Below, one piece after another: positions 1,131 through 39,447 of a stretch of DNA of 64,000 nucleotides. Made by a program: the position numbers and the translations under genes. Each line of letters begins with the position of its first letter. The stretch's first letter is position 1. Origin of the DNA: a virus; the IMG/VR virus record IMGVR_UViG_3300002835_007718, positions 20,023 through 84,022 of that record. One strand, given 5' to 3'. Below the pieces are notes generated by a model. That model was not told the origin of the DNA. It worked only from the letters and a program-made list of their open reading frames with translations, and searched no databases.

Positions 1131-1137
1131 ATATTTC

Positions 1138-4206: not shown

Positions 4207-4207
4207 A

Positions 4208-6569: not shown

Positions 6570-6621
6570 AGATAATTGTAAAATTTTCTTTATGACACAC
6601 GATTCGTTTCCAAAACACCCA

Positions 6622-8982: not shown

Positions 8983-10394
8983 GCTTTATAAATATCAAAT
9001 CGTTTACGAGGAGCCCAATTTTGGAAACATCCTTCAATAGCTTCAACAAACTTTTCACCCATAGATTCAGATGCCATTTCTGCTTCTGATACAATCCATT
9101 CATGTCCTAATTGACCACACTTGATTAACGAACTTCTACCTTTTTTCAAAGCTTCGTCAAGTTGGTCTGCAATTTCAATATAATCGGCTCGGTCATCAAA
9201 AATATACGGAGTCGCAGGAGACCCTTGAAGAGAAAGATTGGATGGCCACACAGGAAAAGCCCAAACCCCCCAACTCAATGATTCATTAGATTTCCATTCT
9301 CTATGATTGTGAAGAGACCCGATTTTAATGTAATCCTCTTCAGTTAGTTGTTTACCATCTAATTCAAACCCACATTGGTCTTGAAGGCCACCGGTAACAT
9401 TCACAATAATTGGTGTGCCGGCTCGTAGAGCTTCACATGATGCAAGACCAAATCCTTCATTTGATGCAATGTTTAAAATTACATCGCCTGAATTGTAAAA
9501 TAAGTTAAGTTCCTCAACCGACATTATGGTATTAGTAAATTTATAATCACCAAATTTACCATTCCATTTAATTACTTCTGGAATATTTGTTCCGTTTTCA
9601 TCAATTGGTTGAGTATGCATAAACAACAACATTTTTTTATCGGGATGTCGTTTAGCAAATTCATTAAAAGCAATAACTAAATCACCTGGTTGTTTTCTAC
9701 GAATATTTCTATTGGCCCAAACTGCAATAAAATCGTATTTTTCTAAATCATGTTTCTTTTTAAACTCAATCAAGTTTAAATCGTCAGATGGTAGTGGTTT
9801 AAAATGTTTTGAAACTCCATGTGGAATGTATTTATAAGCCCAATCTTCTTTTGGCATTTTATAAGTTTCCAAAGTCCGTTTATTAATACCATAAGTTTGT
9901 TTTGAGATAGACATCAACAAATCACAACTTGCGTAAAACGGAGCGTTCCACATTGGGTCTGGCAAAGAGTCCCAAATGTTATAATACATAATAGGAACAA
10001 ACTGACGAACTTCTAATTCCATATCATACAACCACTTCCAAAAGCGAGGGTCGGTAAAGTGTAAGATTGCATCAGGCTTTTCAATATTGATTAATTCACG
10101 AAGAATGCCAGGATTCCCATATCCCGTATGAGCATAAATTTTAACACTAGCATCTTCTACGCCAGTTTCTTTAGCTACATCAGATGATACATCAAATATT
10201 TTTAGATGGTCTGGATGATTTAAAGCTGCCCCCAATTGAACCCAATCATATTTATGAACAGTAGATAATACTATTTCTTTAGATTGAGTTGCGATTCCAC
10301 TATGAAGTCGTAGGTCATCCGATAACAAAAGAATTTTCTTTTTCTTTGGTTTATTCGGGTCTATTTTTTTTAATTTAGGTAAGTTTACTTCCAT
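8979..10394 (-). CDS. Glycosyltransferase family 4 (GT-B)
   Basis: NRNIRRKQ and SNEGFGLASCEALRAGTP. Confidence 0.9.
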   Translation of the reverse strand: MEVNLPKLKKIDPNKPKKKKILLLSDDLRLHSGIATQSKEIVLSTVHKYDWVQLGAALNHPDHLKIFDVSSDVAKETGVEDASVKIYAHTGYGNPGILRELINIEKPDAILHFTDPRFWKWLYDMELEVRQFVPIMYYNIWDSLPDPMWNAPFYASCDLLMSISKQTYGINKRTLETYKMPKEDWAYKYIPHGVSKHFKPLPSDDLNLIEFKKKHDLEKYDFIAVWANRNIRRKQPGDLVIAFNEFAKRHPDKKMLLFMHTQPIDENGTNIPEVIKWNGKFGDYKFTNTIMSVEELNLFYNSGDVILNIASNEGFGLASCEALRAGTPIIVNVTGGLQDQCGFELDGKQLTEEDYIKIGSLHNHREWKSNESLSWGVWAFPVWPSNLSLQGSPATPYIFDDRADYIEIADQLDEALKKGRSSLIKCGQLGHEWIVSEAEMASESMGEKFVEAIEGCFQNWAPRKRFDIYKA

Positions 10395-10414
10395 TCGTAA
10401 CTTTGTTGTTTTTA

Positions 10415-12410: not shown

Positions 12411-12446
12411 ATACAAATATACGAAATTATTTTGAATTATCCAAAT
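12411..12446 (-). promoter_or_regulatory. Bacteroidota housekeeping-sigma-type promoter
   Basis: Minus strand ATTTGGATAATTCAAAATAATTTCGTATATTTGTAT contains -33 TTTG and -7 TAnnTTTG. Confidence 0.75.
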
Positions 12447-12820
12447 TATACCATTGGAAATCCACTTACTGAATTGTTTGTTGTTGAACGATATTGTGGT
12501 GCGTTTGAGCTCCAACCCTTTGAATGGTTGTTGAAATGCGGTTTTGAATATCGTGAAGTAGCTGTGCCAATCAAGTCCCAACCGCTTTCCCATTTTTCAA
12601 ATGAAGCACCATTTTTGAAAGTTACACTAAACTCATCAAAAAAGTCCAACATTTTTATTGAAACCTTACGAAAAATGTTCTTTCGTTCGGGCTTAATAAC
12701 CTCAATAAAAAGGATTGACCTAGCCTTAACTCGACAAATTTTCAAATCCATCGAAAACAACTGCCCCTTAACAGGAACATTTACTTTTACAATTTTACCT
12801 TGAAGCTCTGATAATTCCAT
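12446..12820 (-). CDS. Hypothetical protein
   Basis: 124-aa ORF with its own upstream promoter. Confidence 0.65.
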   Translation of the reverse strand: MELSELQGKIVKVNVPVKGQLFSMDLKICRVKARSILFIEVIKPERKNIFRKVSIKMLDFFDEFSVTFKNGASFEKWESGWDLIGTATSRYSKPHFNNHSKGWSSNAPQYRSTTNNSVSGFPMV

Positions 12821-12840: not shown

Positions 12841-12896
12841 CTAAAGATACGAAATTTATTCAAATATACCAAATTTTAATGTTAAGAAATTGTTAT
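12841..12896 (-). promoter_or_regulatory. Promoter with an upstream TTAACA direct repeat (11-bp phase)
   Basis: Minus strand ATAACA-ATTTC-TTAACA-TTAAAATTTGG...TTTCGTATCTTTAG. Confidence 0.65.
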
Positions 12897-13312
12897 CATT
12901 TTCCCCATTTTCCGTTCTGAACAATTTGAGCAATGATACCATACACCGAAAGGTCAGCGAATGTATCTTGAACTGACTCACCAACCTCATCAGGTTGACC
13001 CAAAATAATCATTTGTTTCAATCTCTGAATTTTGTCGTTGATTCTGAACCAGAGTCCGGTAAGTGACAATTTGATGTCATCGTTGGTTTGTAGAGTTGTT
13101 CCTACGGAGATGTTACCAGGTCCGTAATTTCTTTGTTTTTTACAAAAAGTTTCGTACTGTTCATACATAATCCTTTTGTATTCCGCCATCATTTGGGGAT
13201 AGTTTTCTTCACAATATATAACAGCTGATTGTTCAGCACCACCATAAACATTTCGTTCTTCTTCACCAATCCACTCTATTTTGGTTTTTGCGTCTTTAAT
13301 CATTTTAACCAT
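12896..13312 (-). CDS. DUF1599 / nucleotide-modification-associated domain protein
   Basis: KKQRNYG, RINDKIQRL and ESVQDTFADLSVYGII. Confidence 0.75.
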   Translation of the reverse strand: MVKMIKDAKTKIEWIGEEERNVYGGAEQSAVIYCEENYPQMMAEYKRIMYEQYETFCKKQRNYGPGNISVGTTLQTNDDIKLSLTGLWFRINDKIQRLKQMIILGQPDEVGESVQDTFADLSVYGIIAQIVQNGKWGK

Positions 13313-13755
13313 TTATCTATTTCTTTTTTATCTACTCCGAACTTTTGAATAATCAATTTTACTTCATCTATTGTAAGAATTTCAAGATAATCTTCTATTT
13401 CACGAGAGGATAGTTTGAAATATTTACAAAGATACGTTACCACGTGTTTGTCCCACTTAGATTCTGATTTGCTTTTGATATATTTGTCAAAAGACTTTTT
13501 CTTTGGTAGAACATCCGAATACACTTTATATAGCTCACGAGATTTTAACTGACCATTAGTGTATTGTTGAATCTCGTTTACAAATTCAATGTAGTCTAGG
13601 TTCATAGATAGAAATCGGTTGACCATATACATATCAAACGATTTTCTATCTACCTCGGAGAGGGATTCCCACTTATCTTTTTTGTAGGTAATCCCCCCCA
13701 AGTGGTCAAAAAGTGACTTTGCTTTTACAACAATTTCATCACTTTTTTTCATCAT
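13300..13755 (-). CDS. Clamp loader small subunit (gp62-like)
   Basis: SLFDHL, FDMYMVNRFLSM and YFKLSSREIEDYL; lies downstream of the gp44-like gene. Confidence 0.65.
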   Translation of the reverse strand: MMKKSDEIVVKAKSLFDHLGGITYKKDKWESLSEVDRKSFDMYMVNRFLSMNLDYIEFVNEIQQYTNGQLKSRELYKVYSDVLPKKKSFDKYIKSKSESKWDKHVVTYLCKYFKLSSREIEDYLEILTIDEVKLIIQKFGVDKKEIDKWLK

Positions 13756-14014
13756 TTTCAAAAAATTCGCGTGGAGTGAACTTTGGATGCACTGTTCCAC
13801 AATCATTACAAACTACCACCGGAATAGGCAACATTGATGCTTGACCATTTGGAGATTGAATTGCGGGAACTTCTTTAAACATCGTCAACTCGGTGAAAAA
13901 AATACCATCACAATTAGGGCAAGCCACTGTGGGTAATTTAAATGGGTCGATTTGCATTTGCGGTGCTTGAGTCTTCTGACCCATAGGAATCACCTTGGTT
14001 TGTTTTTTTGTCAT
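13739..14014 (-). CDS. Zinc-ribbon protein
   Basis: CPNC...CNDCG. Confidence 0.65.
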   Translation of the reverse strand: MTKKQTKVIPMGQKTQAPQMQIDPFKLPTVACPNCDGIFFTELTMFKEVPAIQSPNGQASMLPIPVVVCNDCGTVHPKFTPREFFENDEKK

Positions 14015-14015
14015 A

Positions 14016-14933
14016 TTAATTAATTGTCATAATAATGTTAATCATCATCGCCATAGTGTTGATTTCTTTATCAACCACCATTGAGTCCTTATATTGACCA
14101 TCTGCGATGTTTAAGATGGTCTGACCTACTTTTCCATTAGCATACTCATCCACTCTATCATAAAGTGTTTTGTATAAAGGTGTGAAATCACGAACTTTTG
14201 AGTCAGCAATAATTTGTCGGATTGTAGTGAATTTTGTTTTCACATCAGCCGATTTAATTAATTCTTCTACTACATTATCTGCATAATTTGCTTGAATGTT
14301 TGAAGTTGAATCAATTACCAATTTACCATTGATAACTTGTCGTTGTGCTGCATTTAAAACTCTACGAATGTCAGGATATCCACTATTTACAAGAATAGCA
14401 AGTTCATCCGTTTGAAATTCCACACCTTCTTCATTTAGAATATCAAACAATCGTTTAGCAACTTCTTTCTTTGATGGCGGGGTGATAGCAAACGCCTGAC
14501 AACGAGACTGAATCGGGTCAATTACTTTTTCAACATAATTGCAAGTCAAAATAAATCGTGTTGACTTTGAAAATGTTTCCATTAAATTACGAAGAGCTGC
14601 TTGAGCATTAGGAGTCAAATAGTCGGCTTCATCTAAAATAACAACCTTCCATTTTTTGAAACCCATAGATGATGCAAACCCACGAATTTTATCACGAACC
14701 GCGTCAACAGAGTTTTCATCTGAAGCGTTTATATACATCAAATCACAATCAATCTGATTGGTAATAATTTTAGCAAGTGTGGTTTTGCCCGTTCCAGCTT
14801 GACCATATAATAAGAGGTGGGGAACATCCTCGTTTTGAATATAAATCTTTACTTTTTCAAGAATATGTTGGTTTCCAACATAACCTTCTAATGTATCTGG
14901 TCGATATTTTTCGACCCATAGTGAATTACTCAT
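14016..14933 (-). CDS. Clamp loader ATPase (gp44/RFC small subunit)
   Basis: LWVEKYRP, GQAGTGKTT, LDEAD and IQSRC. Confidence 0.95.
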   Translation of the reverse strand: MSNSLWVEKYRPDTLEGYVGNQHILEKVKIYIQNEDVPHLLLYGQAGTGKTTLAKIITNQIDCDLMYINASDENSVDAVRDKIRGFASSMGFKKWKVVILDEADYLTPNAQAALRNLMETFSKSTRFILTCNYVEKVIDPIQSRCQAFAITPPSKKEVAKRLFDILNEEGVEFQTDELAILVNSGYPDIRRVLNAAQRQVINGKLVIDSTSNIQANYADNVVEELIKSADVKTKFTTIRQIIADSKVRDFTPLYKTLYDRVDEYANGKVGQTILNIADGQYKDSMVVDKEINTMAMMINIIMTIN

Positions 14934-16117
14934 CTTCCTACTTCTTTTAAATATTTTTCTTTACAATCTTCCCACGACATACCAATGATGTCAATATAAA
15001 AGAGAGACTCTGGTTTGATACGACCCTCCTCATGAAGTTTTATGTATCTATTAATTGCTTTTGGTTTCCACCACTTCATCGTGTATTCATCACCTTGAAC
15101 AAACTTATCCTTCATTACAAGTTGGTCTTCAGTAATTTCATTGCGTAAAAACTCATTACCATTATCATACATTTGAGCGAAATATACCCCTCTTTTAAAT
15201 CCATGTTGATAGTGAGACGCTCTAATACCAACTTCTTTAAAAATCAGATTAATAATTTTTTGTTTCACTCCGGTAGCAGGCCCATCAACACCTTCTTTTT
15301 CAGCAGTTTGTTTAGCGTATTCTTCAGGCTTATTTTCCTTTATCCAATGATGCCATCCCTCATATACTGAATCATCTGGCTTTGTAGCTACCTTACCTGC
15401 GGATTCACCCAAAGTTTTAAAATGTGGAATTCCGTTATATTGAGAGTGAATACCATATAAAGATGTTGTTCCAACAGCAATCAGAGTTTGTCCGTATTTT
15501 TCTTTCCAATGGTTACGAACTTCTGCAGAGGTAGCCATACAAGCTACCAACTTACCACCCAAGAAGTTATATCCCAAAGGCTGTGTGCATACAATCGTGG
15601 TAGCAATCGTAGTATGATTCAACCTACCATCTTTGTATTTATTATCTTGTGTCCATCCAATATAGTTATCTCTAACCCCCAATGATGTCACATCCGACCC
15701 CAATGATACCAATCCAAGAATTTTACCACTAACTCGGTCTTTAATATAAATTTTGACATTACGACCTGGATTGGCGTCAAATGACATTGTATGGATTAGT
15801 TTTCGGATTTCAGTCCAACGAGTGGACTCTTTGGGGTCATCAACAATTTCCACATAAGGTTCAAGCAATTCAATTTCTTTAATCGTTTGTTCTTTGTTAT
15901 AGATGTCAATAGGCATCCAAAGAGCATCGTAATGAAGCGCCAGACCTGCTTTTCTCTTCATAGAGGTAGCCAAGTCATAGTTCCATTCTTGCCACTTTTT
16001 GTAAAGTGTTTGTTCCTCTACTGACATAGAAGAAAGGTAGTTCATATTTTCAATGAACTTACCCTTTTCTACATCATAGTTAAACTTAGGCTTTGCTGGC
16101 TCGGTATCCCAAAACAT
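14930..16117 (-). CDS. DUF4338 (DruA-like) protein, long form
   Basis: GLVSLGSDVTSLGVRDNYIGW, PLGYNFLGGKLVA and TTSLYG..SQYN. Confidence 0.7.
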   Translation of the reverse strand: MFWDTEPAKPKFNYDVEKGKFIENMNYLSSMSVEEQTLYKKWQEWNYDLATSMKRKAGLALHYDALWMPIDIYNKEQTIKEIELLEPYVEIVDDPKESTRWTEIRKLIHTMSFDANPGRNVKIYIKDRVSGKILGLVSLGSDVTSLGVRDNYIGWTQDNKYKDGRLNHTTIATTIVCTQPLGYNFLGGKLVACMATSAEVRNHWKEKYGQTLIAVGTTSLYGIHSQYNGIPHFKTLGESAGKVATKPDDSVYEGWHHWIKENKPEEYAKQTAEKEGVDGPATGVKQKIINLIFKEVGIRASHYQHGFKRGVYFAQMYDNGNEFLRNEITEDQLVMKDKFVQGDEYTMKWWKPKAINRYIKLHEEGRIKPESLFYIDIIGMSWEDCKEKYLKEVGR

Positions 16118-16812
16118 TACTTAATCTCTACTAAATAATAGTTTGATTTATACCCATCATGTTCAAAAGAAACATGAGCAAGACCTTGTGATGAGACCTT
16201 CATAGAAGATGCTTTAGCACCACGATTTGCGTTCAAGATTTCTTTCAAGTATTTAGCAGAGAATGAAATAGGTTCAACATCACTTTCACAAGTGCATTGA
16301 ACATTAATTGAAATTCGGTTTGAGTTGATTTTAGAATAACCTAAAATTATCTCACCTTTATTATTCTTACACTTGAATGTAAAAGTGTCAGAATCACTTA
16401 AAGCACCTTTAGATTTGATAAACTTACTTACGAAGTCTTCATCTAAAGTAATAGTAGAACCAAAATTAGGGAGCGCCTTGAGTTCTGGAACTACGGGAAT
16501 AACTGATAAATCAGCTAACATATAGTTTACTGATGTACCTGTGTCGGAGAACGCCAAACTGGCGGCACCTTCTTCAATATTGATGTTTGAATCTAAAACA
16601 CCAAGTAAACCTTTGAGTTGGGAAGTCGTGTATACACCAAATTCTCCGTTAGGGAACTCTTTGTCTTCACTTTCAACAGTACCCAAAAGGGTTTTGTCAT
16701 CAGAAATGAATTTTACAAACAATCCTTCATCGGTAGAGTTAATTTTTACAGATTCAACCTCACCACCCAAATTGTAACGGGCTACAAACCCTTCAAATGA
16801 ACTTTTTTTCAT
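16117..16812 (-). CDS. DNA sliding clamp (gp45/PCNA-like)
   Basis: About 230 aa with FGVYTTSQL and FSAKYLKEIL; sits upstream of the clamp loader. Confidence 0.75.
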   Translation of the reverse strand: MKKSSFEGFVARYNLGGEVESVKINSTDEGLFVKFISDDKTLLGTVESEDKEFPNGEFGVYTTSQLKGLLGVLDSNINIEEGAASLAFSDTGTSVNYMLADLSVIPVVPELKALPNFGSTITLDEDFVSKFIKSKGALSDSDTFTFKCKNNKGEIILGYSKINSNRISINVQCTCESDVEPISFSAKYLKEILNANRGAKASSMKVSSQGLAHVSFEHDGYKSNYYLVEIK

Positions 16813-16833
16813 GTTTTTTTATTTTTTATTTAT

Positions 16834-16866
16834 ACTAATATACGAAATAATTTTGAATTATACAAA
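16834..16866 (-). promoter_or_regulatory. Host-type promoter upstream of the clamp gene
   Basis: Minus strand TTTGTATAATTCAAAATTATTTCGTATATTAG. Confidence 0.65.
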
Positions 16867-17469
16867 CCATTGGTGGATTTTTTGTTTTCTTTTTTTAAAT
16901 CTATAAATGTAAATGTTTTTTGTTAATGTTTCCACATATTCAGCACTTCCATTATCCAATGCGTTTTTTAATTCAATAGCAACGGGTTTTAATTTCCCAT
17001 TGTGTTTGTTTCTTAAAGTTTTGCCGTGATACCTACGACCATTCCACATAATAACTCTTCCCGCTGATGTTTCACCCATATACTCAAAGTTTGTAGCTTT
17101 ATAAACCACACCTTCGTGTCCAAATGTTTTATCAGCGTATGAGATTATCATTTCTAAATCAGTATTTCGTTGTAACCACCGAAGCGTCCAACCTATAAAA
17201 TACGATTCGGTATTTTTTGGAGTATCATCAATACACACCAATCTTTTTAGTTCTAAAATCTTGGATGGATTGGGGTTATACTTTTCAGCAACTCCAAGCA
17301 TACCCAAAGACCCATAAACCATAGCACCAATCATAGTATCACCATCCATCAATTTAAAGCAATATGAAATGTGCAATCCATTCATATTTTTTGAATAGTG
17401 ATGGGTTTCCACGAAATCTACAATTTCACTCCGTGGACATTGTTCTACTATGTAATTGGTTACACTCAT
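16858..17469 (-). CDS. Mom-like adenine-modification enzyme (GNAT fold), copy 1
   Basis: HHYS, ELKRL...PKNTESYFI and ISYAD..GHEGVVYKATNF. Confidence 0.8.
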   Translation of the reverse strand: MSVTNYIVEQCPRSEIVDFVETHHYSKNMNGLHISYCFKLMDGDTMIGAMVYGSLGMLGVAEKYNPNPSKILELKRLVCIDDTPKNTESYFIGWTLRWLQRNTDLEMIISYADKTFGHEGVVYKATNFEYMGETSAGRVIMWNGRRYHGKTLRNKHNGKLKPVAIELKNALDNGSAEYVETLTKNIYIYRFKKRKQKIHQWFV

Positions 17470-17693
17470 TAATTTGTTCGCTCGTTGAACTTGTCCTCCA
17501 GCATTTCATTAATATTTCCAATAGTATACGCATTTTGTAAAACTGAATCTAATACATCATATGCGTCATCCTCTGAAATGTCACCAAATCGGTGAACATC
17601 ATCGGTGTGCCAGAGATTATCTACATAGTAACCATGTTCTTTTAATACTTGTTTTGCTTGTTTGGTAGTCATATCATTTAAATTAAAATCCAA
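17469..17693 (-). CDS. Hypothetical protein
   Basis: 74-aa ORF overlapping both neighbours. Confidence 0.6.
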   Translation of the reverse strand: MDFNLNDMTTKQAKQVLKEHGYYVDNLWHTDDVHRFGDISEDDAYDVLDSVLQNAYTIGNINEMLEDKFNERTN

Positions 17694-20202
17694 AAAATTG
17701 TGATGCTTTCTGAAGATTGGGATTTGGTTTATCCCAATTCATTGCATCGTAAAAATCATCAAGTTTGTTTTCTAAATCTTGTTTCCATATTTTATTATAG
17801 TCAATGTATTGTTGAACAAACTGATTGATTTGGGGTGGGTCGTTATGACCTGTAAATGCGGTGGTTTCCAAACCAAGTGGATTCTTTTTAAGATATACCC
17901 ATTTAATTTTATCACCATCTTTCATAGGTTCATATTTGTAAGGAGCTTTATAGTATTTTAATAATCTATTATAAGTTATAGCAGCTTTAACGTGTGCTGG
18001 TGTTCCTTTTTCAAACTCACCTAATGCGTATTCTTTACGAGCGTTTACATACTTAGACATATCCTTTACGGCAGAGTTTTTAGCGATGTCTTTAAATGTC
18101 TGATTTTCCATATTGGATTTATAGTCAATCAGTTTAGCATCAATTTCGGACTTGTCAACACCTTTTAGAATATCCAACAAAACAGTTTCCATCACCTTTT
18201 TAAAGTAAGTTGGGAATGATGACCTACGAACATCAAGTCCCTTTACATCCATTTTGTCACAAGGAACCGTATTGTCGTTAATAATCCATTGTGCGTATCT
18301 CTTTTTTGATACCCAAAATCCACCCTTTGCAATGGTTTCTTGTTTAATATCAAATCGGTGAGAATTTACATTAAATAACTTTTTGGACATTGTGTCGTAG
18401 ACCTTGTTGATGTGGGCTTGAACCTCTTGAGCTACGGACAAAATCGCAGGAACCATTTGTTCATCCGAAGTGGGGTCAATATTTGGGTTTCGGGCTTGAA
18501 CCAAGGGAAGTGCTTGATAAAACACGGAGTCCGTATCGGTATAAACATTATAATCACCCTCTTCACCAATAATACTTTTGTAGTATTGATTAGCAATCAT
18601 TTCAGTAGTTTTGATTACCGTCTGACCTGTAATTGTAGTAGCCTCCGCATTGTCTATATCATAAAATCTAAACGATGGTAATCCTAATACACCATAAAGT
18701 GAATTCAACATAATTTTCTGAACCAATTGACGTTGGGAATAAAACTTATAAAGTTCATCATTACCTACATTACCATATTTTTTCATTAAATCTTTATACT
18801 CGACTCGTTTATCAAACCAAACATTTAAGATTTCAGGTATTACACCTACCCTATCTTGCGTATATAATACACCATTTGATGATAGTGAATAGTTTGATTC
18901 CGTAATAAGTTTTTGAAATTCACTACGAGTCAATGGTGGAAACTCAGCGCCAGAATCATCTACAATTGAATAAGATTCAATTTTGTCTTTCATATAATCT
19001 TCCGATGAAAATGATTTTAATTTACCAATTTTCGTTTCGGGTGATACATTTAAAGTCATAATGATGGATGGATACAGCGATGTTAAGTCCAAGTCGTATA
19101 CCCATTTGTAAAGACCTGGTTTGGGTTCTTTAACATATGCGCCTGTAAATTTACCTTCACTATCAGAACCATCTTCATTTTTTTCGGCTCTCTTTGATTT
19201 ATCTGGCGCTACACGATTACTTCTACGAAGAAATGTTAAGATAGCACCTTCCAACCACTTTGATGAGAATAGAAAGTCTTCGTAAAAAACGTGACCTGCG
19301 TGACAAATCGCTTGAGCGAGTTCAATGAACTGAAGTTTTCTATCCATTTCAACAACCAACTCCACATCCACCAAGTTATACTCAATGAATTTTTCCAAGT
19401 CATCTCGAAATAATTGGTCAAGATTACCTTGATAATCAATCTTACCTCTACCCAATACAATATTAGCAATAGTATCTAATCGGTAATTTGGAAATTCTTG
19501 ATAGGTAAAGTTTTTGTAAAGAGCAAGATAGTCCAAACAAGAAACTCCCGCGATAATATAACGATTACGATATTTGTTGTATCCAATCTTACCAATTGGA
19601 GATAACTTGTTAGCCATTCTTTCACCCAACACATTTTTCAAACGATTGTATAGATAGGTGACATCAAAGTAGTCAATGTTCCAACCGGTAACAATTGTGG
19701 GATTGATTTCTTGCCATTTGTTTAGGAATGATTCAAGCAGGTCAGCTTCAGTTTTGAATGACCTAACTTGAGCACCCTTAATAGTTTTATCTACATAATT
19801 GTCTGATACAACATACACAAAATAGTCATTGGTCACCGAATCATGACCTGCAATTGAAGTAATTGCATTGCCTGCTTTATCAATGTCAGGTAAGCCAGTA
19901 TTCATCTCAACCTCAATATCAAAAGTCAGTATGGTATGACCTTTTGACACCTCATCTGAATCTCCATATTGGTCAATAAGAAACCGAGTTACTTCGTTTA
20001 CATCACTTTCATAGAGTTTAAGATTATCTTCTTGTTTCCAAAAATTTATCTTTTTAAGACGCTCTCCATGAATAGAAGTAAAAGCACCATTCCCATCTCT
20101 AACATAAGCATATCTACGGTATTTGCTTGTAAAATAACCCTTTTGGTCATCCCAACAATGAATGATACTTTGTTCTTTATCGTAGTAAACATTTTGATAC
20201 AT
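17683..20202 (-). CDS. DNA polymerase family B (gp43-like)
   Basis: FDIE and GWNIDYFD exonuclease motifs; DLTSLYPSII, KIMLNSLYG and YTDTDS polymerase motifs. Confidence 0.97.
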   Translation of the reverse strand: MYQNVYYDKEQSIIHCWDDQKGYFTSKYRRYAYVRDGNGAFTSIHGERLKKINFWKQEDNLKLYESDVNEVTRFLIDQYGDSDEVSKGHTILTFDIEVEMNTGLPDIDKAGNAITSIAGHDSVTNDYFVYVVSDNYVDKTIKGAQVRSFKTEADLLESFLNKWQEINPTIVTGWNIDYFDVTYLYNRLKNVLGERMANKLSPIGKIGYNKYRNRYIIAGVSCLDYLALYKNFTYQEFPNYRLDTIANIVLGRGKIDYQGNLDQLFRDDLEKFIEYNLVDVELVVEMDRKLQFIELAQAICHAGHVFYEDFLFSSKWLEGAILTFLRRSNRVAPDKSKRAEKNEDGSDSEGKFTGAYVKEPKPGLYKWVYDLDLTSLYPSIIMTLNVSPETKIGKLKSFSSEDYMKDKIESYSIVDDSGAEFPPLTRSEFQKLITESNYSLSSNGVLYTQDRVGVIPEILNVWFDKRVEYKDLMKKYGNVGNDELYKFYSQRQLVQKIMLNSLYGVLGLPSFRFYDIDNAEATTITGQTVIKTTEMIANQYYKSIIGEEGDYNVYTDTDSVFYQALPLVQARNPNIDPTSDEQMVPAILSVAQEVQAHINKVYDTMSKKLFNVNSHRFDIKQETIAKGGFWVSKKRYAQWIINDNTVPCDKMDVKGLDVRRSSFPTYFKKVMETVLLDILKGVDKSEIDAKLIDYKSNMENQTFKDIAKNSAVKDMSKYVNARKEYALGEFEKGTPAHVKAAITYNRLLKYYKAPYKYEPMKDGDKIKWVYLKKNPLGLETTAFTGHNDPPQINQFVQQYIDYNKIWKQDLENKLDDFYDAMNWDKPNPNLQKASQFFGF

Positions 20203-21332
20203 TAATTTAGTTGTTTATGTAGTTCTTGAATCATTTTATCTTCATTCAAAGATAGTTCCATTGCTCGTTGAAGTGACAAATTGTCTTGTTTTTTTCTGAA
20301 AGTGTCATCATCCAACATCTTGTCTAAATACCCAAAGAATTCCTTTTTTGTTTTGAAGAACATTCCGTTGGGGTCAATTTCGTGATAACAATCGGATTCT
20401 TGCCAAATCATCGCAGTTCCATTCATCATACAATCAGTTCCACTTACCGACCAACCATAATTAGTTTGTCTCATCTGAACACCAACCTTACATTTTTGAA
20501 GTTGTTGATAGTATTCGTTTTTTGCTAACTTTGTATTGTCAATCCAACCAAATGGAACTTTACCAGTTAATTGTGGAATCCACACTATAAAATCTTGTCG
20601 TTGGGTATGATACTCTTCCATCAACTCAATAAACTTTGGATATCCTTTGTAAGCTGCTGGTCGGTGGTTAAATACGATAATGTTTTCTTTTGTATCTTTT
20701 ATTTGAGTTACAACTTTATTTTGTGGTAATCCTAAATTCCATACTTTTAGAATATCATCCAATTTGTTAGTAAATTCTTCATTGAATACTTCCTTTGCCT
20801 CTAATAATACCCTATTTTTTTGGTCTTGCGTGTTAAGATAGCAAGTATCCATTTGAGATACTCCCATCAATTCAATAGGTAACCACAACCACTTTGCCTT
20901 ACCTTCTCTATTGTCAGGTCCGTTACACGATTTCATTTCCCACCAATGACAATAACCCACAATTTTCATGTCCATTGATTTTTTGTATCTACCGACTTGA
21001 GGCCAATCCGGCAAATGTGAATAGATTACATCATAATCAATATCCTTCAGAACTTTTATGAGGTCACTTGATGGAAATGCTCTTTGATTCATCATATCGC
21101 CTGGAATGTGAATCTCAACTTGTTTTACATTTGGTAGGTTCAACTTTTTAGTAACACTACCCTTTGGAACTAATACATTCCAATAGTATTCACCATAGTT
21201 TTCTAACGCTTTGATGTGATTATGGATTACATCAATGAATGAATCCTTTTCAATGTTAGATGAATTTGTTATGTTCGGAATTACCAACACCTTTCTGGCG
21301 TTTTTGTAATCTACTGATTCCCAAAAGTTCAT
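20202..21332 (-). CDS. GT-B glycosyltransferase, possibly DNA-acting
   Basis: IVFNHR...KG and YGWSVSGTDCMMNG (degenerate GT4 motif); overlaps the PolB start. Confidence 0.6.
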   Translation of the reverse strand: MNFWESVDYKNARKVLVIPNITNSSNIEKDSFIDVIHNHIKALENYGEYYWNVLVPKGSVTKKLNLPNVKQVEIHIPGDMMNQRAFPSSDLIKVLKDIDYDVIYSHLPDWPQVGRYKKSMDMKIVGYCHWWEMKSCNGPDNREGKAKWLWLPIELMGVSQMDTCYLNTQDQKNRVLLEAKEVFNEEFTNKLDDILKVWNLGLPQNKVVTQIKDTKENIIVFNHRPAAYKGYPKFIELMEEYHTQRQDFIVWIPQLTGKVPFGWIDNTKLAKNEYYQQLQKCKVGVQMRQTNYGWSVSGTDCMMNGTAMIWQESDCYHEIDPNGMFFKTKKEFFGYLDKMLDDDTFRKKQDNLSLQRAMELSLNEDKMIQELHKQLN

Positions 21333-21338
21333 TTACGT

Positions 21339-22058
21339 TTATTTATTTTTTACTAAAAAAGTTTTCCAATTTTTAACCAATGGTTTTAGGAATACCTTTT
21401 TAATAGGTGACTCCGTTATTACATAGTGTTCTCTACCCACAGCGTATCTCTTAATAGCTTCTTTAGGATGGTTTCTAGCCATTTCACCTCTCGTAGAGTT
21501 TTCACGCTGCCATAATAGTAATGGTGCTTTTTTAATAGAGTTACCTAATGTTTCACCGACCGCTATCCAATTATCTGCTAAGTATACTGCGCCATTTCTT
21601 TTGTTGTCGGACCCATCTATTAAGGGTTGAACGAATGTTTCTAACATTATTAGGTCATCACCATACTTTTCTTTCCATCGTTTAGAACCAATCTCTCTTA
21701 ATAATTTAAGAGCCATCGTTCCTGCATTTGGTATACCATTATCAGGAATCAAACAAAATCTATAATTGTTAGCTACTTTGTTTGAATTCTTTAATCGAGT
21801 ATCTTTGTCCCAACCTATCCAATTATCTCTTGCGCCAATAGCTAATACACAAGATGAAATGCCAATAGCCCCAATGGGTTTACTATCTAATGTTCTATAA
21901 ATAATGTAGTTTATTCTTCGCTGTGGAACATCCTTATACTTAACATACGAATGGTATGTATTTATAATATCTCTAAATATTTTGGTTTGATTTGAATTCA
22001 AACATTCTTGTAGAAATATGGGATAATCATAATTATTTGTATAATCAAAAAATGACAT
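21339..22058 (-). CDS. DUF4338 (DruA-like) protein, short form
   Basis: ARDNWIGW, NNYRFCLIP, LETFV and GAVYLADNWIAVGETLG. Confidence 0.75.
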   Translation of the reverse strand: MSFFDYTNNYDYPIFLQECLNSNQTKIFRDIINTYHSYVKYKDVPQRRINYIIYRTLDSKPIGAIGISSCVLAIGARDNWIGWDKDTRLKNSNKVANNYRFCLIPDNGIPNAGTMALKLLREIGSKRWKEKYGDDLIMLETFVQPLIDGSDNKRNGAVYLADNWIAVGETLGNSIKKAPLLLWQRENSTRGEMARNHPKEAIKRYAVGREHYVITESPIKKVFLKPLVKNWKTFLVKNK

Positions 22059-22069
22059 ATAATCGGTTA

Positions 22070-22543
22070 CTACTTATTTTTAGAGTTTAAAAAGTTAAAG
22101 AATTTTTTAAATCCAACTGATTTGTTTTTTCGTAATATGCCGGCGCTTTCCATTTCTTTAACATCCTCTTTTCCAATTTCAATAAATCGGAGATTTGACA
22201 TTTCTCGGAAATCAATACCAACAAAGAAATCCAAAGAATTCATTTTTTCATTAAAACCATTTTCGGTTACCTTTCTACCATACCCAACTTCTTTAGAAGA
22301 AGCAAATGAAATTTTTTCGGTGATTGAACGAACTTCAATTCGTTCACCATTTACACCATCAACATCATAAGAAGAACCTTCAGATTTTGCTCGTTGAGCT
22401 CCTATTTTATTAGCGTAAATAAACTCACCTAAACGACCAACAATTCGACCATCATTTAAAAATGCAATAACTTCAGATTCACTAAGTCCTAATCCTTCAG
22501 CTACTTTTTTCAAATTCAATTTGTGTGAAAATCGTTCTTTCAT
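22070..22543 (-). CDS. Putative PD-(D/E)XK restriction-endonuclease-like protein
   Basis: GRLGEFIYA...SYDVDG...RIEVRS gives an E..D..ExR pattern; start MKERF lies after a promoter. Confidence 0.45.
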   Translation of the reverse strand: MKERFSHKLNLKKVAEGLGLSESEVIAFLNDGRIVGRLGEFIYANKIGAQRAKSEGSSYDVDGVNGERIEVRSITEKISFASSKEVGYGRKVTENGFNEKMNSLDFFVGIDFREMSNLRFIEIGKEDVKEMESAGILRKNKSVGFKKFFNFLNSKNK

Positions 22544-22559
22544 ATCGTGTCTCTCAATT

Positions 22560-22600
22560 ACAAGTCTAATATACAAAAAAGATGTGATACACACAAGCTT
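22560..22600 (-). promoter_or_regulatory. Host-type promoter
   Basis: Minus strand CTTG...TTTTTTGTATATTAGACTTG. Confidence 0.55.
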
Positions 22601-22608
22601 TTTTTAAT

Positions 22609-22824
22609 TTATTTTTCTAATATCATATAAGTTACACAATCACATTCCATCTCCTGAAATACATCATCATAGATAACCTTTCGGATATCATCAGTATCAT
22701 AATACTCACCCAACTTACCGGAGTGTGTAGGTAGTGGATTTAAAGATTCAACATACGATTGAAAATGTGTTCCGATGAATTCATTCACCTTACTTACCAA
22801 CATATAATTTCCTGTCTTCAACAT
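22609..22824 (-). CDS. Hypothetical protein
   Basis: 71-aa ORF downstream of a promoter, with an AAGTTATG start context. Confidence 0.55.
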   Translation of the reverse strand: MLKTGNYMLVSKVNEFIGTHFQSYVESLNPLPTHSGKLGEYYDTDDIRKVIYDDVFQEMECDCVTYMILEK

Positions 22825-22840
22825 AACTTATCTTTTTTAT

Positions 22841-22902
22841 TACATAGTAAAGATACGAATAAATTACGAATTGCCAAAATTTTAATGTTAAGTTTATGTT
22901 AA
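22841..22902 (-). promoter_or_regulatory. Promoter with an upstream TTAACA direct repeat (11-bp phase)
   Basis: Minus strand TTAACA-TAAAC-TTAACA-TTAAAATTTTGG...TTCGTATCTTTAC. Confidence 0.65.
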
Positions 22903-22904
22903 AT

Positions 22905-23699
22905 TTACCAAAAATTTACTTTATTTTCTGGCTCGTAGGTTTCATACCGCTCTCCTTTAGGTAAAATATCATTTACGTTCTTTGGTGGAGTTTCACAAGG
23001 GTGTTTGAGTGAGTTCATCAACTTCTTTTTTTCCGATTTGTTAGTTGGTAGAATTTGAATGTATCTTAATTTAGACATTTCTTTTCTCCGCCAGAACTCT
23101 TTATATCCATCTTTACCAATTTCGGTTTTGAGGTGTTCCAAGTTATGCGAACCCCATCTTGAGAATACAGTTCTTGAGTGAATATATTGACCATTTTCAC
23201 CTTCCAAACAAATACCATAGTTTGGCATCAATTGAATTTTGTTGGTGTCTTGAAACAACCAATTTGTAGCACGATAAATACCACCCAAATGACCTTGGAA
23301 TGGGTCTGAATAGGATAGTAACATCTTAATGTTGGGAGCGTGTTCTCTCATCCATTTAAATGTTTGACCCAAAGCATATGATTCAATATTAGAACCATAC
23401 CCATCGTGAATAAAGAGCCGTGTTAACTCCAAACATTGGTCGTTACCCAATCCATCAATGATTGAGGTTACAGCGGACCTACCAACAGGAAAACCATATA
23501 CAGCGACACCAATCAATTGTTCATCATTACCAAGAATATCCAACTCATCAGTTTTGTAAAATATTCCCAATGAATATCTACACATAGTCCACGCGTGGGA
23601 ATAATGATGAGTTATAATCATATCCTTTGCAATGGCTTTATTTATTTCACGAATTGATACCCGTGAGGTGTCTACATATATCTTATTATCCTCTTTCAA
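22905..23699 (-). CDS. Mom-like adenine-modification enzyme, copy 2
   Basis: HHYSH, ELTRLF..DGYGSNIES and LSYSDP.QGHLGGIYRATNW. Confidence 0.8.
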   Translation of the reverse strand: MKEDNKIYVDTSRVSIREINKAIAKDMIITHHYSHAWTMCRYSLGIFYKTDELDILGNDEQLIGVAVYGFPVGRSAVTSIIDGLGNDQCLELTRLFIHDGYGSNIESYALGQTFKWMREHAPNIKMLLSYSDPFQGHLGGIYRATNWLFQDTNKIQLMPNYGICLEGENGQYIHSRTVFSRWGSHNLEHLKTEIGKDGYKEFWRRKEMSKLRYIQILPTNKSEKKKLMNSLKHPCETPPKNVNDILPKGERYETYEPENKVNFW

Positions 23700-24444
23700 T
23701 TGGGTCTAATTTGTAGATTTCTTCTATAAACTCTTCGTTTTCCGTTGGATATGGTAGCGATGGGTATTTTAATGATTTTAATATACGACTTTTTTTTGAA
23801 TTATCCAAAATATAAACATATCGGTGTTTTCTCAACTCTTTTTTTATCCAAAAAGGTTGATTTGTCATTTCTTGGATTTTTGTTGGATTATTAGTTCCAA
23901 ACTTTACAAATGATGTGCGTGAGTGAGTCCAGTCACCCCCCTCTTCCCACTTAAATAACCATGAATCGTTGGGTCTGATACGATTACCTTGATAAATCCA
24001 ATTTGTAGACATATAAACAGTTCCCTTATGACCCACCTTTGGGTCGGAGTAAGAGATAAGTGCTCGGATGTGAGAAGCGTTTTCTCTTAACCATTTAAAG
24101 GTTTGACCTACAAACCAACTTTCTACATTACACCCATACCCATCAAAAACAAATAATCGTGTAAGTTCAAGAACTTCAGTTCGGTCAAGAAGTGGTGAAA
24201 TAGACTGACCCGAATGTCTACCTATGGGGTCTCCATATGTAGCAACTCCAACTAACTCTTCATTTACACCACTAAAAAATTGATGCTCTTCTTCTGATTT
24301 GTAGAAAAGTCCTAATGCATATGATACCTTTGTCCAAATATGAGCATAGTGGTGATTTACCACGATTTCTTTAGCTACCGATTTTGAAATAGGTCTAACT
24401 GAAAATTTAGATGGGTCGAAATATACCTTACCTTCTACTTTCAT
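23686..24444 (-). CDS. Mom-like adenine-modification enzyme, copy 3
   Basis: HHYAH, ELTRLF..DGYGCNVES and ISYSDP..GHKGTVYMSTNW; paralog of copy 2. Confidence 0.8.
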   Translation of the reverse strand: MKVEGKVYFDPSKFSVRPISKSVAKEIVVNHHYAHIWTKVSYALGLFYKSEEEHQFFSGVNEELVGVATYGDPIGRHSGQSISPLLDRTEVLELTRLFVFDGYGCNVESWFVGQTFKWLRENASHIRALISYSDPKVGHKGTVYMSTNWIYQGNRIRPNDSWLFKWEEGGDWTHSRTSFVKFGTNNPTKIQEMTNQPFWIKKELRKHRYVYILDNSKKSRILKSLKYPSLPYPTENEEFIEEIYKLDPIERG

Positions 24445-24659
24445 TGATAATCATTAAATTCTCCAAAAAGTATATGAGTCCAAGTTTCACCTTTTACAAT
24501 TTTACGGATGTTCGTAGGAGATACCCCATTATTATGAGCAAGAACACGAATATTTCGGTGTCCGATAGCCCATAGTTTTCGGATTGCCTTTACTTGGGTT
24601 TCCGTGAGTTTATGTTGTGGGTGTGATTCTCCTCTTAACGACATCTTAAATCTCTTCAT
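24441..24659 (-). CDS. Small HTH DNA-binding protein (HNH-endonuclease-associated type)
   Basis: GESHPQHKLTETQVKAIR...GVSPTNIRKIVKGETW. Confidence 0.65.
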   Translation of the reverse strand: MKRFKMSLRGESHPQHKLTETQVKAIRKLWAIGHRNIRVLAHNNGVSPTNIRKIVKGETWTHILFGEFNDYQ

Positions 24660-25080
24660 TAAATTCTATTTTCAACTGACTAGCATCATTATTCCATGCG
24701 TTGTATACAATCTTACCCAAATCAGGTTTGATATAGTTTGGACCTTTTAATATTTTACCATCTTCACGATAGACTGGCTTACCATCTAACCCCAACTTTG
24801 ACATATTAGAACGATGAACCTCATCAAAACATTCTTCAATAATATCTTGCATCCCATGGGCTACAATCGTGCCTAAAAGAATATAAAGTTGGTCGGTTAA
24901 GGCGTCAGCAATTTCAATTGGGTCATCCATTTCATTAGCATGAATATATTCATCTAATTCTTCTTTACCAAGGTTATATCGTAAGTATCCCATGGTATCA
25001 CTTTGACTACAAGGTGAAGTTTCGATAGTGTGTCCAAATGTGCTATGGAATTCAACAAGCTTTTTTAATTGGTCTTTCAT
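24646..25080 (-). CDS. MazG-like/PRA-PH NTP pyrophosphohydrolase
   Basis: EELDEY, EIADALTD and EVHRSNMSKLG.DGKP.YREDGKILKG. Confidence 0.9.
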   Translation of the reverse strand: MKDQLKKLVEFHSTFGHTIETSPCSQSDTMGYLRYNLGKEELDEYIHANEMDDPIEIADALTDQLYILLGTIVAHGMQDIIEECFDEVHRSNMSKLGLDGKPVYREDGKILKGPNYIKPDLGKIVYNAWNNDASQLKIEFNEEI

Positions 25081-25484: not shown

Positions 25485-26579
25485 TCATAAATCACTTATT
25501 TTTTTAAGAGCCGATGCAACAACTTGATGCATATCATAGTATTTGTATTCTGCTAATCTACCACCAAAAATAACTTTGTCATTGTCAGCCAGTTCTTTGT
25601 ATTTTTTATACTTCGTGTTGTTATTTTCATCATTAACAGGATAAAATGGTTCTACACCTCGTGTATATTCTTGTGGAAATTCCATACTAACCCAAGTTGT
25701 TTTTTGATTTTGATTATCAAAATATTTGTGTTCAATAATTCTTGTGAATGAATTATCACTATCAGTATAGTTCATTACAGCACACCCTTGATAATTGTCA
25801 GTATTAATTTTCATGGTATCCCAACGAACGGATTTATATTCTAAATCACCAAATTGATAATTAAAATACTTGTCAATAGGGCCTGTATAAATTACTTTAA
25901 TAGCTAGGTCATCCCAATACTCTTTGTTTTCCAAATAGTCACAATTTGTATAGACCTTAATACCCTTTAACATTTTTTCAAATATTTGAGTATATCCTCC
26001 AATAGGAATACCTTGATATTTGTCGTTAAAATAGTTGTTATCATATGTAAATCTTACTGGCAATCTTTTTATGATTGAGGCTGGTAGTTCCGTAGCAGAC
26101 TTTCGCCATTGTTTTTCAGTATACCCTTTAATTAACTTTTCATAGATGTCTTTACCTACCAATGAAAGAGCTTGTTCTTCAAGATTGGTAATTTTACCAT
26201 TAAATCGTTGCTCTTCAATCTTTTGCCGTGCTTCATTAGGAGTCGTAACCCCCCACATCTGATTAAAAGTCCACATATTGAATGGTAAAGAGTAAATTTC
26301 ACCTTTATAGTTAGCAACAGGATTTAACTGAAATTGATTAAATTCAGCAAATTGATTAATATACTCCCAAATCCCTTTATCGTTAGTATGGAAAATGTGA
26401 GGTCCATATTTGTGAATATGAACCCCATCTTGATTTTCCGTGTAACAATTACCACCAATGTGGTCTCTTTTTTCAAGAACCAACACCGATTTTCCTTGTT
26501 TATTTAACTCGTGGGCGCATATTGAACCAAACAATCCAGAACCTACAATAATATAATCGTATTTAGAGGTTATTGACAT
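25485..26579 (-). CDS. glf: UDP-galactopyranose mutase
   Basis: IVGSGLFG, HIGGNCY, HKYGPHIFHT and GRLAEYKYYDMHQ. Confidence 0.95.
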   Translation of the reverse strand: MSITSKYDYIIVGSGLFGSICAHELNKQGKSVLVLEKRDHIGGNCYTENQDGVHIHKYGPHIFHTNDKGIWEYINQFAEFNQFQLNPVANYKGEIYSLPFNMWTFNQMWGVTTPNEARQKIEEQRFNGKITNLEEQALSLVGKDIYEKLIKGYTEKQWRKSATELPASIIKRLPVRFTYDNNYFNDKYQGIPIGGYTQIFEKMLKGIKVYTNCDYLENKEYWDDLAIKVIYTGPIDKYFNYQFGDLEYKSVRWDTMKINTDNYQGCAVMNYTDSDNSFTRIIEHKYFDNQNQKTTWVSMEFPQEYTRGVEPFYPVNDENNNTKYKKYKELADNDKVIFGGRLAEYKYYDMHQVVASALKKISDL

Positions 26580-27678
26580 AGTTTAGTGCTTTAGCGTGTA
26601 ATTCATTACACAAATTTCCAGTATCACAATATGCGTTATTTTCAATTAAAAATGAATAATCAGGAAAAGGGTTTTTACGAGATGGGTTTACTAAAATAGA
26701 TGTAATATTTAACATATTTCTATACTGACCTAGTTGTTCGTAGTAATTAACCAATGATAAGTAATGTTCATTTCTATATGGATTAAATTCAGTAGCTTTT
26801 GTGTAATAAAATAAAGCGTTGTCAACCTCACCTAAAAATTGATATGCATTTGCTACAAGCATCATAGCATAGTATCCCATATCATCCATTTTTTTTGGAT
26901 GATGTTGTTTGAACCAATCGTGATTTTGATTTAAATACATTTCATAATAAAAAATACATCTACGGGCGTATTCTCTAGCGTGATGTTCTCCAAATGGTAG
27001 ATTTTTAACATCATTGTAACCATCATTATATGACTTCGCGATATACCATAAATGATATGAATCCTCAAGCACTTTATTACTTGGAACTTTATCCAATTCT
27101 AATGTTAAAGCATCAGTAATAAATTTCATAGGGGCAAACCAAGTTTCACCATCGTTTGTAATAATTTGCCTAAATGATTTCGGTAATGGTAATCTCTGAA
27201 AATCTTCGCCAACATCAGGTAACCAAATTGTTTCATGTCGCTTATCATGTTGAAAATACCATGGAAGTTTTGCATTCCACATCCAAGTTCGGAAATATAA
27301 TGAGTTACCAGGATCAGCTACAATATTCCATGATTGAACCGATGTATCATTTAGAATAGACCAATCAAAATTAACATCAACTTGTAATTGTTCATCAGCA
27401 TCCATACGAAGAATCCAATCACACCCATGATTTGCTTTTAAACAAGTTTGTAAAGTGTGGTCACGATTCCAACCTGGATATTCCCATTTAGTTTCGTAAG
27501 TAAAGCCAGAAATACCACGACTCTGAAAAAACTCGTCAATGATATTTCTGGTATTATCGTTACCATTACATTGAATTACATAGTAATCAATATAATCTAC
27601 AACTGATTGTAACATTCGTGTAATTGTTGCTTCTTCGTTTCCGACCATTGCATTTACACATATTTTTGTTTGTTTCAT
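26563..27678 (-). CDS. GT2 glycosyltransferase with a C-terminal TPR-like region
   Basis: NEEATITRML and WILRMDADE (DxD); helical ANAYQFLGEVDNALFYY segment. Confidence 0.75.
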   Translation of the reverse strand: MKQTKICVNAMVGNEEATITRMLQSVVDYIDYYVIQCNGNDNTRNIIDEFFQSRGISGFTYETKWEYPGWNRDHTLQTCLKANHGCDWILRMDADEQLQVDVNFDWSILNDTSVQSWNIVADPGNSLYFRTWMWNAKLPWYFQHDKRHETIWLPDVGEDFQRLPLPKSFRQIITNDGETWFAPMKFITDALTLELDKVPSNKVLEDSYHLWYIAKSYNDGYNDVKNLPFGEHHAREYARRCIFYYEMYLNQNHDWFKQHHPKKMDDMGYYAMMLVANAYQFLGEVDNALFYYTKATEFNPYRNEHYLSLVNYYEQLGQYRNMLNITSILVNPSRKNPFPDYSFLIENNAYCDTGNLCNELHAKALNYVNNL

Positions 27679-38730: not shown

Positions 38731-38734
38731 AATT

Positions 38735-39391: not shown

Positions 39392-39406
39392 ATCCTCAAC
39401 TTTATA

Positions 39407-39442
39407 TAACAAATATACTAATTCTATTTGAGATAGCCAAAT
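39407..39442 (-). promoter_or_regulatory. Host-type promoter
   Basis: Minus strand ATTTGG...TAGTATATTTGTT. Confidence 0.6.
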
Positions 39443-39447
39443 TTTAT

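Follow-up and report, generated by a model that had tools for sequence, protein, structure and literature searches.

What are three Mom proteins and two DruA proteins doing among the replication genes of a T4-like phage, and what would they write on its DNA? We analyzed these genes in a 64,000-nucleotide stretch of viral DNA (the window), which comprises bases 20023–84022 of the 84 kb IMG/VR virus record IMGVR_UViG_3300002835_007718 and in which the genes of the region all lie on the minus strand (G+C ~34%). A preliminary description, made from the sequence alone, had three Mom-like and two DUF4338 (DruA) proteins interleaved with PolB, the clamp and the clamp loader; Pfam and PHROGs searches confirmed this arrangement, and Pfam found exactly three Mom and two DruA genes in the whole 84 kb record. 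That description did not recognize that the open reading frame at 22070–22594 encodes a homologue of restriction endonucleases. Our best explanation, to which we assign a probability of about 0.6, is that Mom and DruA genes for DNA modification by GNAT enzymes were inserted into a T4-like phage replication module, that the shorter DruA protein (DruA_S) marks DNA against the nuclease with which it is paired, and that these activities protect the phage from restriction. The genes on which this explanation turns are as follows.

16858–17469, minus strand: Mom1, 203 amino acids, between PolB and the clamp gene (Pfam Mom, 123 bits, E 1.4e-35)
22905–23699, minus strand: Mom2, 264 amino acids (Pfam Mom, 158 bits, E 4e-46)
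23686–24444, minus strand: Mom3, 252 amino acids, in tandem with Mom2 (Pfam Mom, 145 bits, E 4e-42)
14930–16117, minus strand: DruA_L, 395 amino acids, between the clamp and clamp-loader ATPase genes (Pfam DruA, 86.3 bits, E 2.6e-24; PADLOC DruA1, E 7e-25)
21339–22058, minus strand: DruA_S, 239 amino acids (Pfam DruA, 77.1 bits, E 1.7e-21; PADLOC DruA1, E 3.8e-7)
22070–22543 (open reading frame 22070–22594), minus strand: Type II restriction-endonuclease homologue (DUF6998; full-length match to PADLOC REase_II PDLC03550, E 1.2e-14)
20202–21332, minus strand: GT376, a glycosyltransferase resembling GT4 enzymes that is probably accessory to the module

By sequence, Mom1, Mom2 and Mom3 are true members of the Mom family, with scores several-fold above the Pfam cut-off (PF25680, 27.1 bits). 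Mom3 is 44% identical to Mom2, and the Mom3–Mom2 tandem is retained in most relatives; Mom1 has 1226 metagenome homologues and is present in only some relatives. Mom2 alone matched the crystal structure of phage Mu Mom (PDB 8BV8) with E 3.9e-8, and a profile of the Mom family matched it with E 2.8e-26 in a sequence-level alignment that covered the whole chain (to residue 225), including the helix-turn-helix (HTH)-like insert. Mu Mom moves glycine from Gly-tRNA(Gly) onto adenine N6 in double-stranded DNA, and the adduct rearranges to N6-carbamoylmethyl-adenine (Silva et al., Nat Commun 2026, PMC13219725). R111, S124, D149 and R151 of Mu Mom are essential, the HTH-like insert (residues ~175–209) is needed, and the enzyme acts alone (PMC13219725). 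In an alignment of 16 Mom-family sequences, the equivalents of Mu H58, Y59, R111, S124 and Y159 were invariant and D149 was conserved in 15 of 16. The family also has an invariant histidine three residues past the position of R151, at the place of Mu R154.

Both DruA proteins exceed the Pfam cut-off for their family (PF14236, 27 bits), and DruA_L lies between clamp and clamp loader as the preliminary description had it. A G..Y...N[WF] motif, said there to be common to the three Mom proteins and the short DUF4338 protein, proved to be real: it occurs as GVVYKATNF, GGIYRATNW, GTVYMSTNW and GAVYLADNW in these four proteins, within a block that profile comparison aligns as homologous, and is missing from DruA_L. 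The proposal that DUF4338 is related to Mom held for the family of DruA_S, whose profile matched the Mom profile with an hhalign probability of 95.7% (E 8.8e-9) over 192 columns. In this alignment, Mu R111 corresponds to DruA_S R100, the N-x-E-S block that contains Mu S124 corresponds to N-x-G-T/S, and the GH.G..Y.A.N[WF] block corresponds to NGAVY.A.NW. DruA_S and DruA_L matched each other with an hhalign probability of 98.9% (E 3.5e-17), and profile comparison ties DruA_L to Mom solely through DruA_S.

A GNAT fold for DUF4338 had been named beforehand as a check on this kinship, and published work already classes DUF4338 as a GNAT (PMC10853773). The DruA_S structure modeled with AlphaFold2 (predicted local distance difference test score, pLDDT, 82.5) gave 46 PDB matches at E ≤1e-3 in Foldseek, and all matches listed were GNATs (GCN5, RimI, PCAF and others) with probability 1.0. 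The Mu Mom structure 8BV8 was not among the PDB matches listed, and the DruA_S profile had no significant sequence match in the PDB. For DruA_L, the model (pLDDT 88) had weak best matches in the PDB (E 3e-3), all of them acetyltransferase folds, with p300, malonyl-CoA decarboxylase, KKT23 and the RNA cytidine acetyltransferase TmcA (probability 0.98) at the top. Thus, a GNAT fold is clearly predicted for DruA_S and weakly predicted for DruA_L.

The gene directly upstream of DruA_S provides a separate line of evidence. Its product has a weak match to Pfam DUF6998 in addition to the full-length REase_II match; because homologues have ~157 amino acids, its likely start is the ATG at 22543, which gives a protein of 157 residues. 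E40, D60 and E70-x-R72 were invariant in 16 aligned homologues that span the family, and the stop codon lies 11 nucleotides before the start of DruA_S. Among 113 viral and metagenomic loci with a homologue of this nuclease, the gene directly downstream encoded a PF01555 N6/N4 methylase in 91 (E about 1e-42 to 1e-45), a DruA_S-type protein in 13 and another product in 6; in 3 loci the contig ended there. Of the 110 informative loci, 104 therefore have a methylase or DruA_S right behind the nuclease, and the stop and start codons of the two genes often overlap. The nuclease-linked methylases have SPPY in motif IV, a sequence that in beta-class methylases goes with N4-cytosine methylation, a rule with exceptions. 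These counts place DruA_S in the modification slot of a restriction–modification (R-M) pair, so that in some loci the methylase behind the nuclease has been replaced by DruA_S. In all 13 nuclease–DruA_S pairs the catalytic motif of the nuclease and all invariant residues of DruA_S were intact, down to identities of 49% for the nuclease and 67% for DruA_S, and the pair was found in at least three unrelated gene contexts. Searches of the 84 kb record with PF01555, PF02086 and PF00145 turned up no DNA methylase, and PF01555 was absent from the five near-complete relatives examined. A pattern scan of genome contigs found no bacterial homologues of the nuclease.

The exchange of methylase and DruA behind one nuclease family implies that DruA would write a protective mark on DNA, and the simplest reading, suggested by gene order and homology, is that DruA_S marks DNA so that the neighboring nuclease spares it. 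DNA is the probable substrate of DruA because of this methylase slot, because relatives of DruA_L have N-terminal fusions to ParB_N, UDG-superfamily and DUF3102 domains, and because DruA_S-like genes on bacterial metagenome-assembled contigs, in early regions that resemble prophages or integrative and conjugative elements, adjoin N6_N4 methylases as well as replication-initiator HTH proteins and DUF932. The earlier suggestion that DUF4338 proteins are Mom-related DNA modifiers is supported by homology, by predicted fold and, above all, by position in the methylase slot.

DruA homologues were also seen elsewhere. The cultured Pelagibacter phage Mosig EXVC030M (L320; MT647606.1 13988–15683) has a full-length DruA_L homologue with 34.5% identity, annotated DUF4338, and a MazG gene directly after it; a second Pelagibacter phage, HTVC008M, matched at two places and likewise has a full-length homologue. 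In six loci (L164, L166, L177, L190, L191, L208) PolB is followed by a DruA_S-like gene (38% identity). Earlier work noted DruA-like genes in Synechococcus phages (bioRxiv 10.1101/2025.08.05.668817).

We compared the locus with relatives that have or lack these genes. Its PolB is T4-like, and the nearest isolate is Microcystis phage Mel-JY01 (48% identity), in which PolB, clamp, clamp-loader ATPase, a small open reading frame, clamp-loader A and a DUF1599-like gene are contiguous and Mom and DruA are absent. In the viral loci retrieved with DruA_S (46) or Mom2 (80) as the seed, Mom and DruA genes occupied varying positions within the same replication module; they are accessory cargo inserted in a conserved replication backbone. 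In a further set of 80 loci seeded by PolB only, 49 spanned both insertion slots, and among these Mom and DruA_L were both present in 33 and both absent in 15, with DruA_L alone in one and Mom alone in none. Mapped on a PolB tree, Mom presence gave four independent contrasts, with which DruA_L agreed in 4/4; three of these were joint losses within the crown clade. Mom2 and Mom3 lie upstream of PolB and DruA_L lies between clamp and loader, two separate sites, yet the genes are lost together. DruA_S, its nuclease and Mom1 are sporadic extras among the relatives.

The glycosyltransferase shows a related pattern. A GT376-like gene was present in 24 of the 34 relatives positive for Mom/DruA and in none of the 15 negative ones, and in four distant phages (L196, L198, L200, L202; PolB ~44% identical) it stands directly after DruA_L, without Mom2 or Mom3. 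The preliminary description had a GT-B enzyme overlapping the start of PolB; the overlap is there, with the stop codon of GT376 and the start codon of PolB sharing one base (TAATG), and the GT-B call is weak, as the match to the N-terminal domain of GT4 enzymes (Glyco_transf_4, 20.2 bits) falls below the Pfam cut-off of 28.5. Language-model neighbors of GT376 (Atlas) were viral clusters and GT4 families, and it had no sequence match in the PDB. A hydroxymethyl-pyrimidine route that would furnish the acceptor for this enzyme was not supported: the 84 kb record yielded no ThyA-family gene, and the ThyA-type gene carried by near-complete relatives is present as well in one that lacks Mom/DruA.

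Other proposed members of the system fell away in the same comparison. MazG and DUF1599 had been counted as parts of it; both persist in close relatives that lack Mom/DruA, as do GLF, GT2-TPR and orf72, a small HTH gene, and DUF1599 is also found in Mel-JY01. We therefore regard these five as backbone genes and reject them as parts of the system. The DUF1599 call itself is weak in Pfam (22 bits, under the cut-off of 25), although PHROGs gave phrog_1485 at E 4e-12. For orf72, a role as a Com-like regulator of Mom was rejected on the same grounds, its persistence in relatives without Mom/DruA.

Taken with what is known of Mu Mom, these results suggest how the module would act, although we infer its chemical steps, target base and donor. 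Most likely, by analogy with the Mu enzyme, Mom1, Mom2 and Mom3 would act on duplex DNA once it has been replicated, with a charged tRNA as donor of an aminoacyl group that they would place on adenine's exocyclic amine, and the paralogues probably differ in sequence context or donor. DruA_S and the upstream nuclease would form a two-gene unit with DruA_S in the role of the methylase: DruA_S would mark phage DNA at or near the site of the nuclease, and only unmarked DNA of the host or of competitors would be cut. DruA_L and GT376 are probably linked functionally to Mom2 and Mom3 and may either extend the same modification or cover further sites, and we lean toward parallel or partly coupled action of Mom2/3, DruA_L and the glycosyltransferase. 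The overall role would be to shield phage DNA from restriction.

Palindrome counts agree with heavy Type II restriction acting on this lineage. Across the 84 kb record GATC occurred 7 times versus 274 expected (observed/expected ratio, O/E, 0.03) and GTAC 18 times versus 257 expected (0.07), and CTAG, ACGT, TCGA and CATG had O/E values of 0.25–0.40. GATC avoidance is lineage-wide, and other 4-base palindromes are erased phage by phage among relatives. We rejected the idea that Mom/DruA relieve site avoidance, as the O/E of GATC was 0.04 in relatives with these genes and 0.07 in those without.

Several observations weigh against the explanation that we prefer. The position of the essential R151 of Mu Mom is occupied by F in Mom2, K in Mom3 and T in Mom1, so that their donor, or their mechanism in detail, may not be the same as in Mu Mom. 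DruA_S has no counterpart of Mu D149; DruA_L has no equivalent of R111, its profile had no direct match to that of Mom (hhalign 0.7%), and its model had no PDB match at E 1e-3 or better. Of the DruA_S-seeded loci, 43/46 have no adjacent nuclease. A free tree of the nuclease requires 3–4 changes of partner, but a tree that unites the DruA-partnered nucleases in one clade is not rejected by the approximately unbiased (AU) test (p 0.596); several methylase-to-DruA swaps are thus not shown, and we limit the claim to one replacement or more. Four independent contrasts are too few for the joint loss of Mom and DruA_L to reach significance (p 0.125), and the glycosyltransferase gene lies within the Mom cassette in most relatives, so that it could have been lost with them as a hitch-hiker. 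Avoidance of GATC is as strong without the genes as with them, which means that Mom/DruA would add to site avoidance and not replace it. Finally, the modification is predicted from genes, in a genome that CheckV estimates to be 43% complete.

Some of these observations would be expected if the five GNATs were independent orphan modifiers, each with its own site or base and acquired singly as anti-restriction cargo, with no pathway and no link to nuclease or glycosyltransferase; their co-occurrence would then reflect block deletions and shared selection, depending on whether hosts have the defenses in question. The positions and copy numbers of Mom1, DruA_S and DruA_L do vary between phages, most DruA_S loci lack the nuclease, three loci (L199, L200, L201) have DruA_L without Mom in the stretch covered, the glycosyltransferase is missing in 10/34 positive relatives, and Mu Mom works alone (PMC13219725). 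Such independence fits poorly with the loss of Mom2/3 and DruA_L from two sites in three crown-clade lineages, with a nuclease–DruA_S adjacency kept across three unrelated contexts and deep divergence, and with a glycosyltransferase gene that adjoins DruA_L in distant phages without Mom2/3, and we judge it rather unlikely. Less probable still is that DruA, and perhaps some of the Mom paralogues, acylate something other than DNA, such as a replisome or host protein, an aminoacyl-tRNA (as the TacT and AtaT toxins do) or a small molecule, with proximity to replication genes reflecting early or middle expression. DruA_L would suit such a role in that its sequence suggests a Q-x-x-G-x-N at the place of the coenzyme A-binding loop of classical GNATs and has neither the catalytic arginine of Mom nor a direct profile match to it. 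DruA_S nevertheless stands in for a DNA methylase in the slot after a restriction endonuclease, ParB_N and UDG domains occur fused to DruA relatives, and DruA_S-like genes adjoin DNA methylases in prophage-like regions. Druantia type I, moreover, is reported to add a new 'm6A' (N6-methyladenine) motif to host DNA despite having no methylase domain, and the responsible gene is unknown (bioRxiv 10.1101/2024.04.14.589459; also cited in 10.64898/2026.05.12.722862).

The nuclease homologue could itself be misread. It might act in homing or in repair, or be no more than an inactive relic, and its position beside DruA_S might be an accident of a mobile cassette. The replacement of the catalytic lysine by arginine (E-x-R) would agree with this, as would the lack of any significant match between its profile and solved restriction enzymes (best NhoI, E 1.3) and the six homologues without an adjacent methylase or DruA. 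T4-like phages are also rich in free-standing homing endonucleases. A methylase or DruA_S downstream in 104 of 110 loci is, however, the signature of R-M pairs and unlike that of homing endonucleases; the E..D..ExR residues are invariant in 16 aligned homologues from across the family, and the REase_II match is full-length, so we consider a homing, repair or inactive nuclease improbable. Going further than our preferred explanation, one could propose that DUF4338/DruA proteins in general are sequence-specific transferases that place a non-methyl acyl or aminoacyl mark on the exocyclic amine of a DNA base and replace the R-M methylase in phages, that the Druantia type I protein is the self-marking enzyme and the reported m6A a Mom-like adduct, and that Mom2/3, DruA_L and the glycosyltransferase build one composite base stepwise. 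We offer this broader proposal tentatively, as a possibility that falls short of a likely one.

The remaining genes at and around the module were assigned as follows.

17683–20202, minus strand: PolB, 839 amino acids (Pfam)
16117–16812, minus strand: clamp (PHROGs)
14016–14933, minus strand: clamp-loader ATPase (Pfam)
13300–13806, minus strand: clamp-loader A (PHROGs)
24646–25080, minus strand: MazG-like PRA-PH protein (Pfam, E 9e-13)
22609–22824, minus strand: orf71, a small open reading frame between Mom2 and the nuclease
24441–24659, minus strand: orf72, 72 amino acids, similar to the HTH portion at the C terminus of phage HNH endonucleases (PHROGs, E 6e-5)

The surroundings encode ribonucleotide reductase, a DnaB-type helicase, a 5'-3' exonuclease, a UvsX/RecA-type recombinase and gp32. 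A copy of orf71 with 93% identity occurs at the same place in one relative (L251), and family searches including Pfam and PHROGs gave no match for it; its membership in the module is unproven. The gene for orf72 overlaps the start of Mom3 and keeps the same backbone position in relatives without Mom. NCBIfam had no name for any Mom, DruA or nuclease-region protein searched. No tRNA genes were found in the 84 kb record, and no Rfam match was found at the Mom/DruA genes.

Further observations concern neighboring parts of the window. An open reading frame of 124 amino acids without a family match (12446–12820, minus strand) adjoins DUF1599; in ten relatives (L135, L169–L173, L190–L192, L208) it stands between Mom2 and the glycosyltransferase and therefore travels with or near the module. 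PolB is in two pieces in L006, L190, L191, L203, L207 and L208, separated by an insert that may be an intein, an intron or a homing endonuclease. Adjacent genes at 38311–40527 (minus strand) encode an AAA_33-type kinase, a metallophosphatase and an RNA ligase of the T4 Rnl1 type, which together resemble the Pnk/Rnl set for tRNA repair in T4. At 1–10400 and 25485–27678 (minus strand) there are many sugar-nucleotide and glycosyltransferase genes, which are retained in relatives without Mom/DruA: a cytidylyltransferase, a 2-hydroxyacid dehydrogenase, a PIG-L deacetylase, a TOD1/MUCI70-like glycosyltransferase, a UDP-glucose dehydrogenase, a GT2, two GT1/GT4-conflict-like genes, a UDP-galactopyranose mutase and GT2-TPR.

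The module resembles several known systems and differs from each. Mom1–3 share with Mu Mom scores far above the Pfam cut-off, a full-length alignment to 8BV8, six active-site residues and a phage anti-restriction setting; here, however, there are three paralogues per genome versus one, R151 is not conserved, the genes are inherited together with a glycosyltransferase gene and one for DruA, and they lie in the replisome module of a lytic T4-like phage, unlike the late com-mom operon of Mu. DruA_L and DruA_S belong with the DruA of Druantia type I by Pfam and PADLOC scores, but they occur in a phage genome and not in a defense island, one of them is paired with a small Type II-like nuclease and the other is linked to Mom genes, and no DruB–E genes lie beside them. 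The neighbors of DruA are replisome genes, the glycosyltransferase and the nuclease, and the largest open reading frames of the window encode a collagen-like protein of 1154 amino acids, one of 921 and the 839-residue PolB, versus ~2000 amino acids for the DruE helicase. Whereas we propose DNA marking for the phage DruA proteins, the enzyme behind the 'm6A' signal of Druantia is unknown (bioRxiv 10.1101/2024.04.14.589459).

Like the Type II R-M pairs of other viruses (chlorovirus R-M, and phage contigs with a nuclease and an SPPY N6_N4 methylase), the unit described here consists of a small nuclease of the PD-(D/E)xK type followed by a DNA-modifier gene, and moves as two genes between phage backbones. 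Its modifier, as modeled, is instead a GNAT-fold acyl or aminoacyl transferase and not an S-adenosylmethionine (AdoMet)-dependent methyltransferase; the protecting mark would therefore not be methyl. The module also recalls phage hypermodification, namely glucosylation of hydroxymethylcytosine in T4 and the thymidine modifications of ViI, M6 and SP10, in having several enzymes, here including a probable glycosyltransferase, tied to replication genes and to protection from restriction. In contrast to those systems, no hydroxymethyl-pyrimidine route is linked to it, and its core enzymes are GNATs that, by analogy with Mom, would act after replication.

Druantia type I was among the first of the 'new' defense systems to be described, and the function of DruA, its signature protein, is unknown. 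What is new here is that an open reading frame of the DUF6998 family is a restriction-endonuclease homologue and that DruA_S occupies the methylase slot behind it. The replacement of methylase by DruA amounts to a natural experiment, in which one nuclease family is followed by a methylase in ~90 loci and by a DruA-type GNAT in 13, and it supplies a small two-gene test system, a nuclease of 157 amino acids and a DruA of 239. If our interpretation is correct, a non-methyl class of 'M' enzymes would join the biology of restriction–modification, the tRNA-dependent chemistry of Mom would extend to a much larger family, and the possible mislabeling of such marks in sequencing-based methylome calls would be explained.

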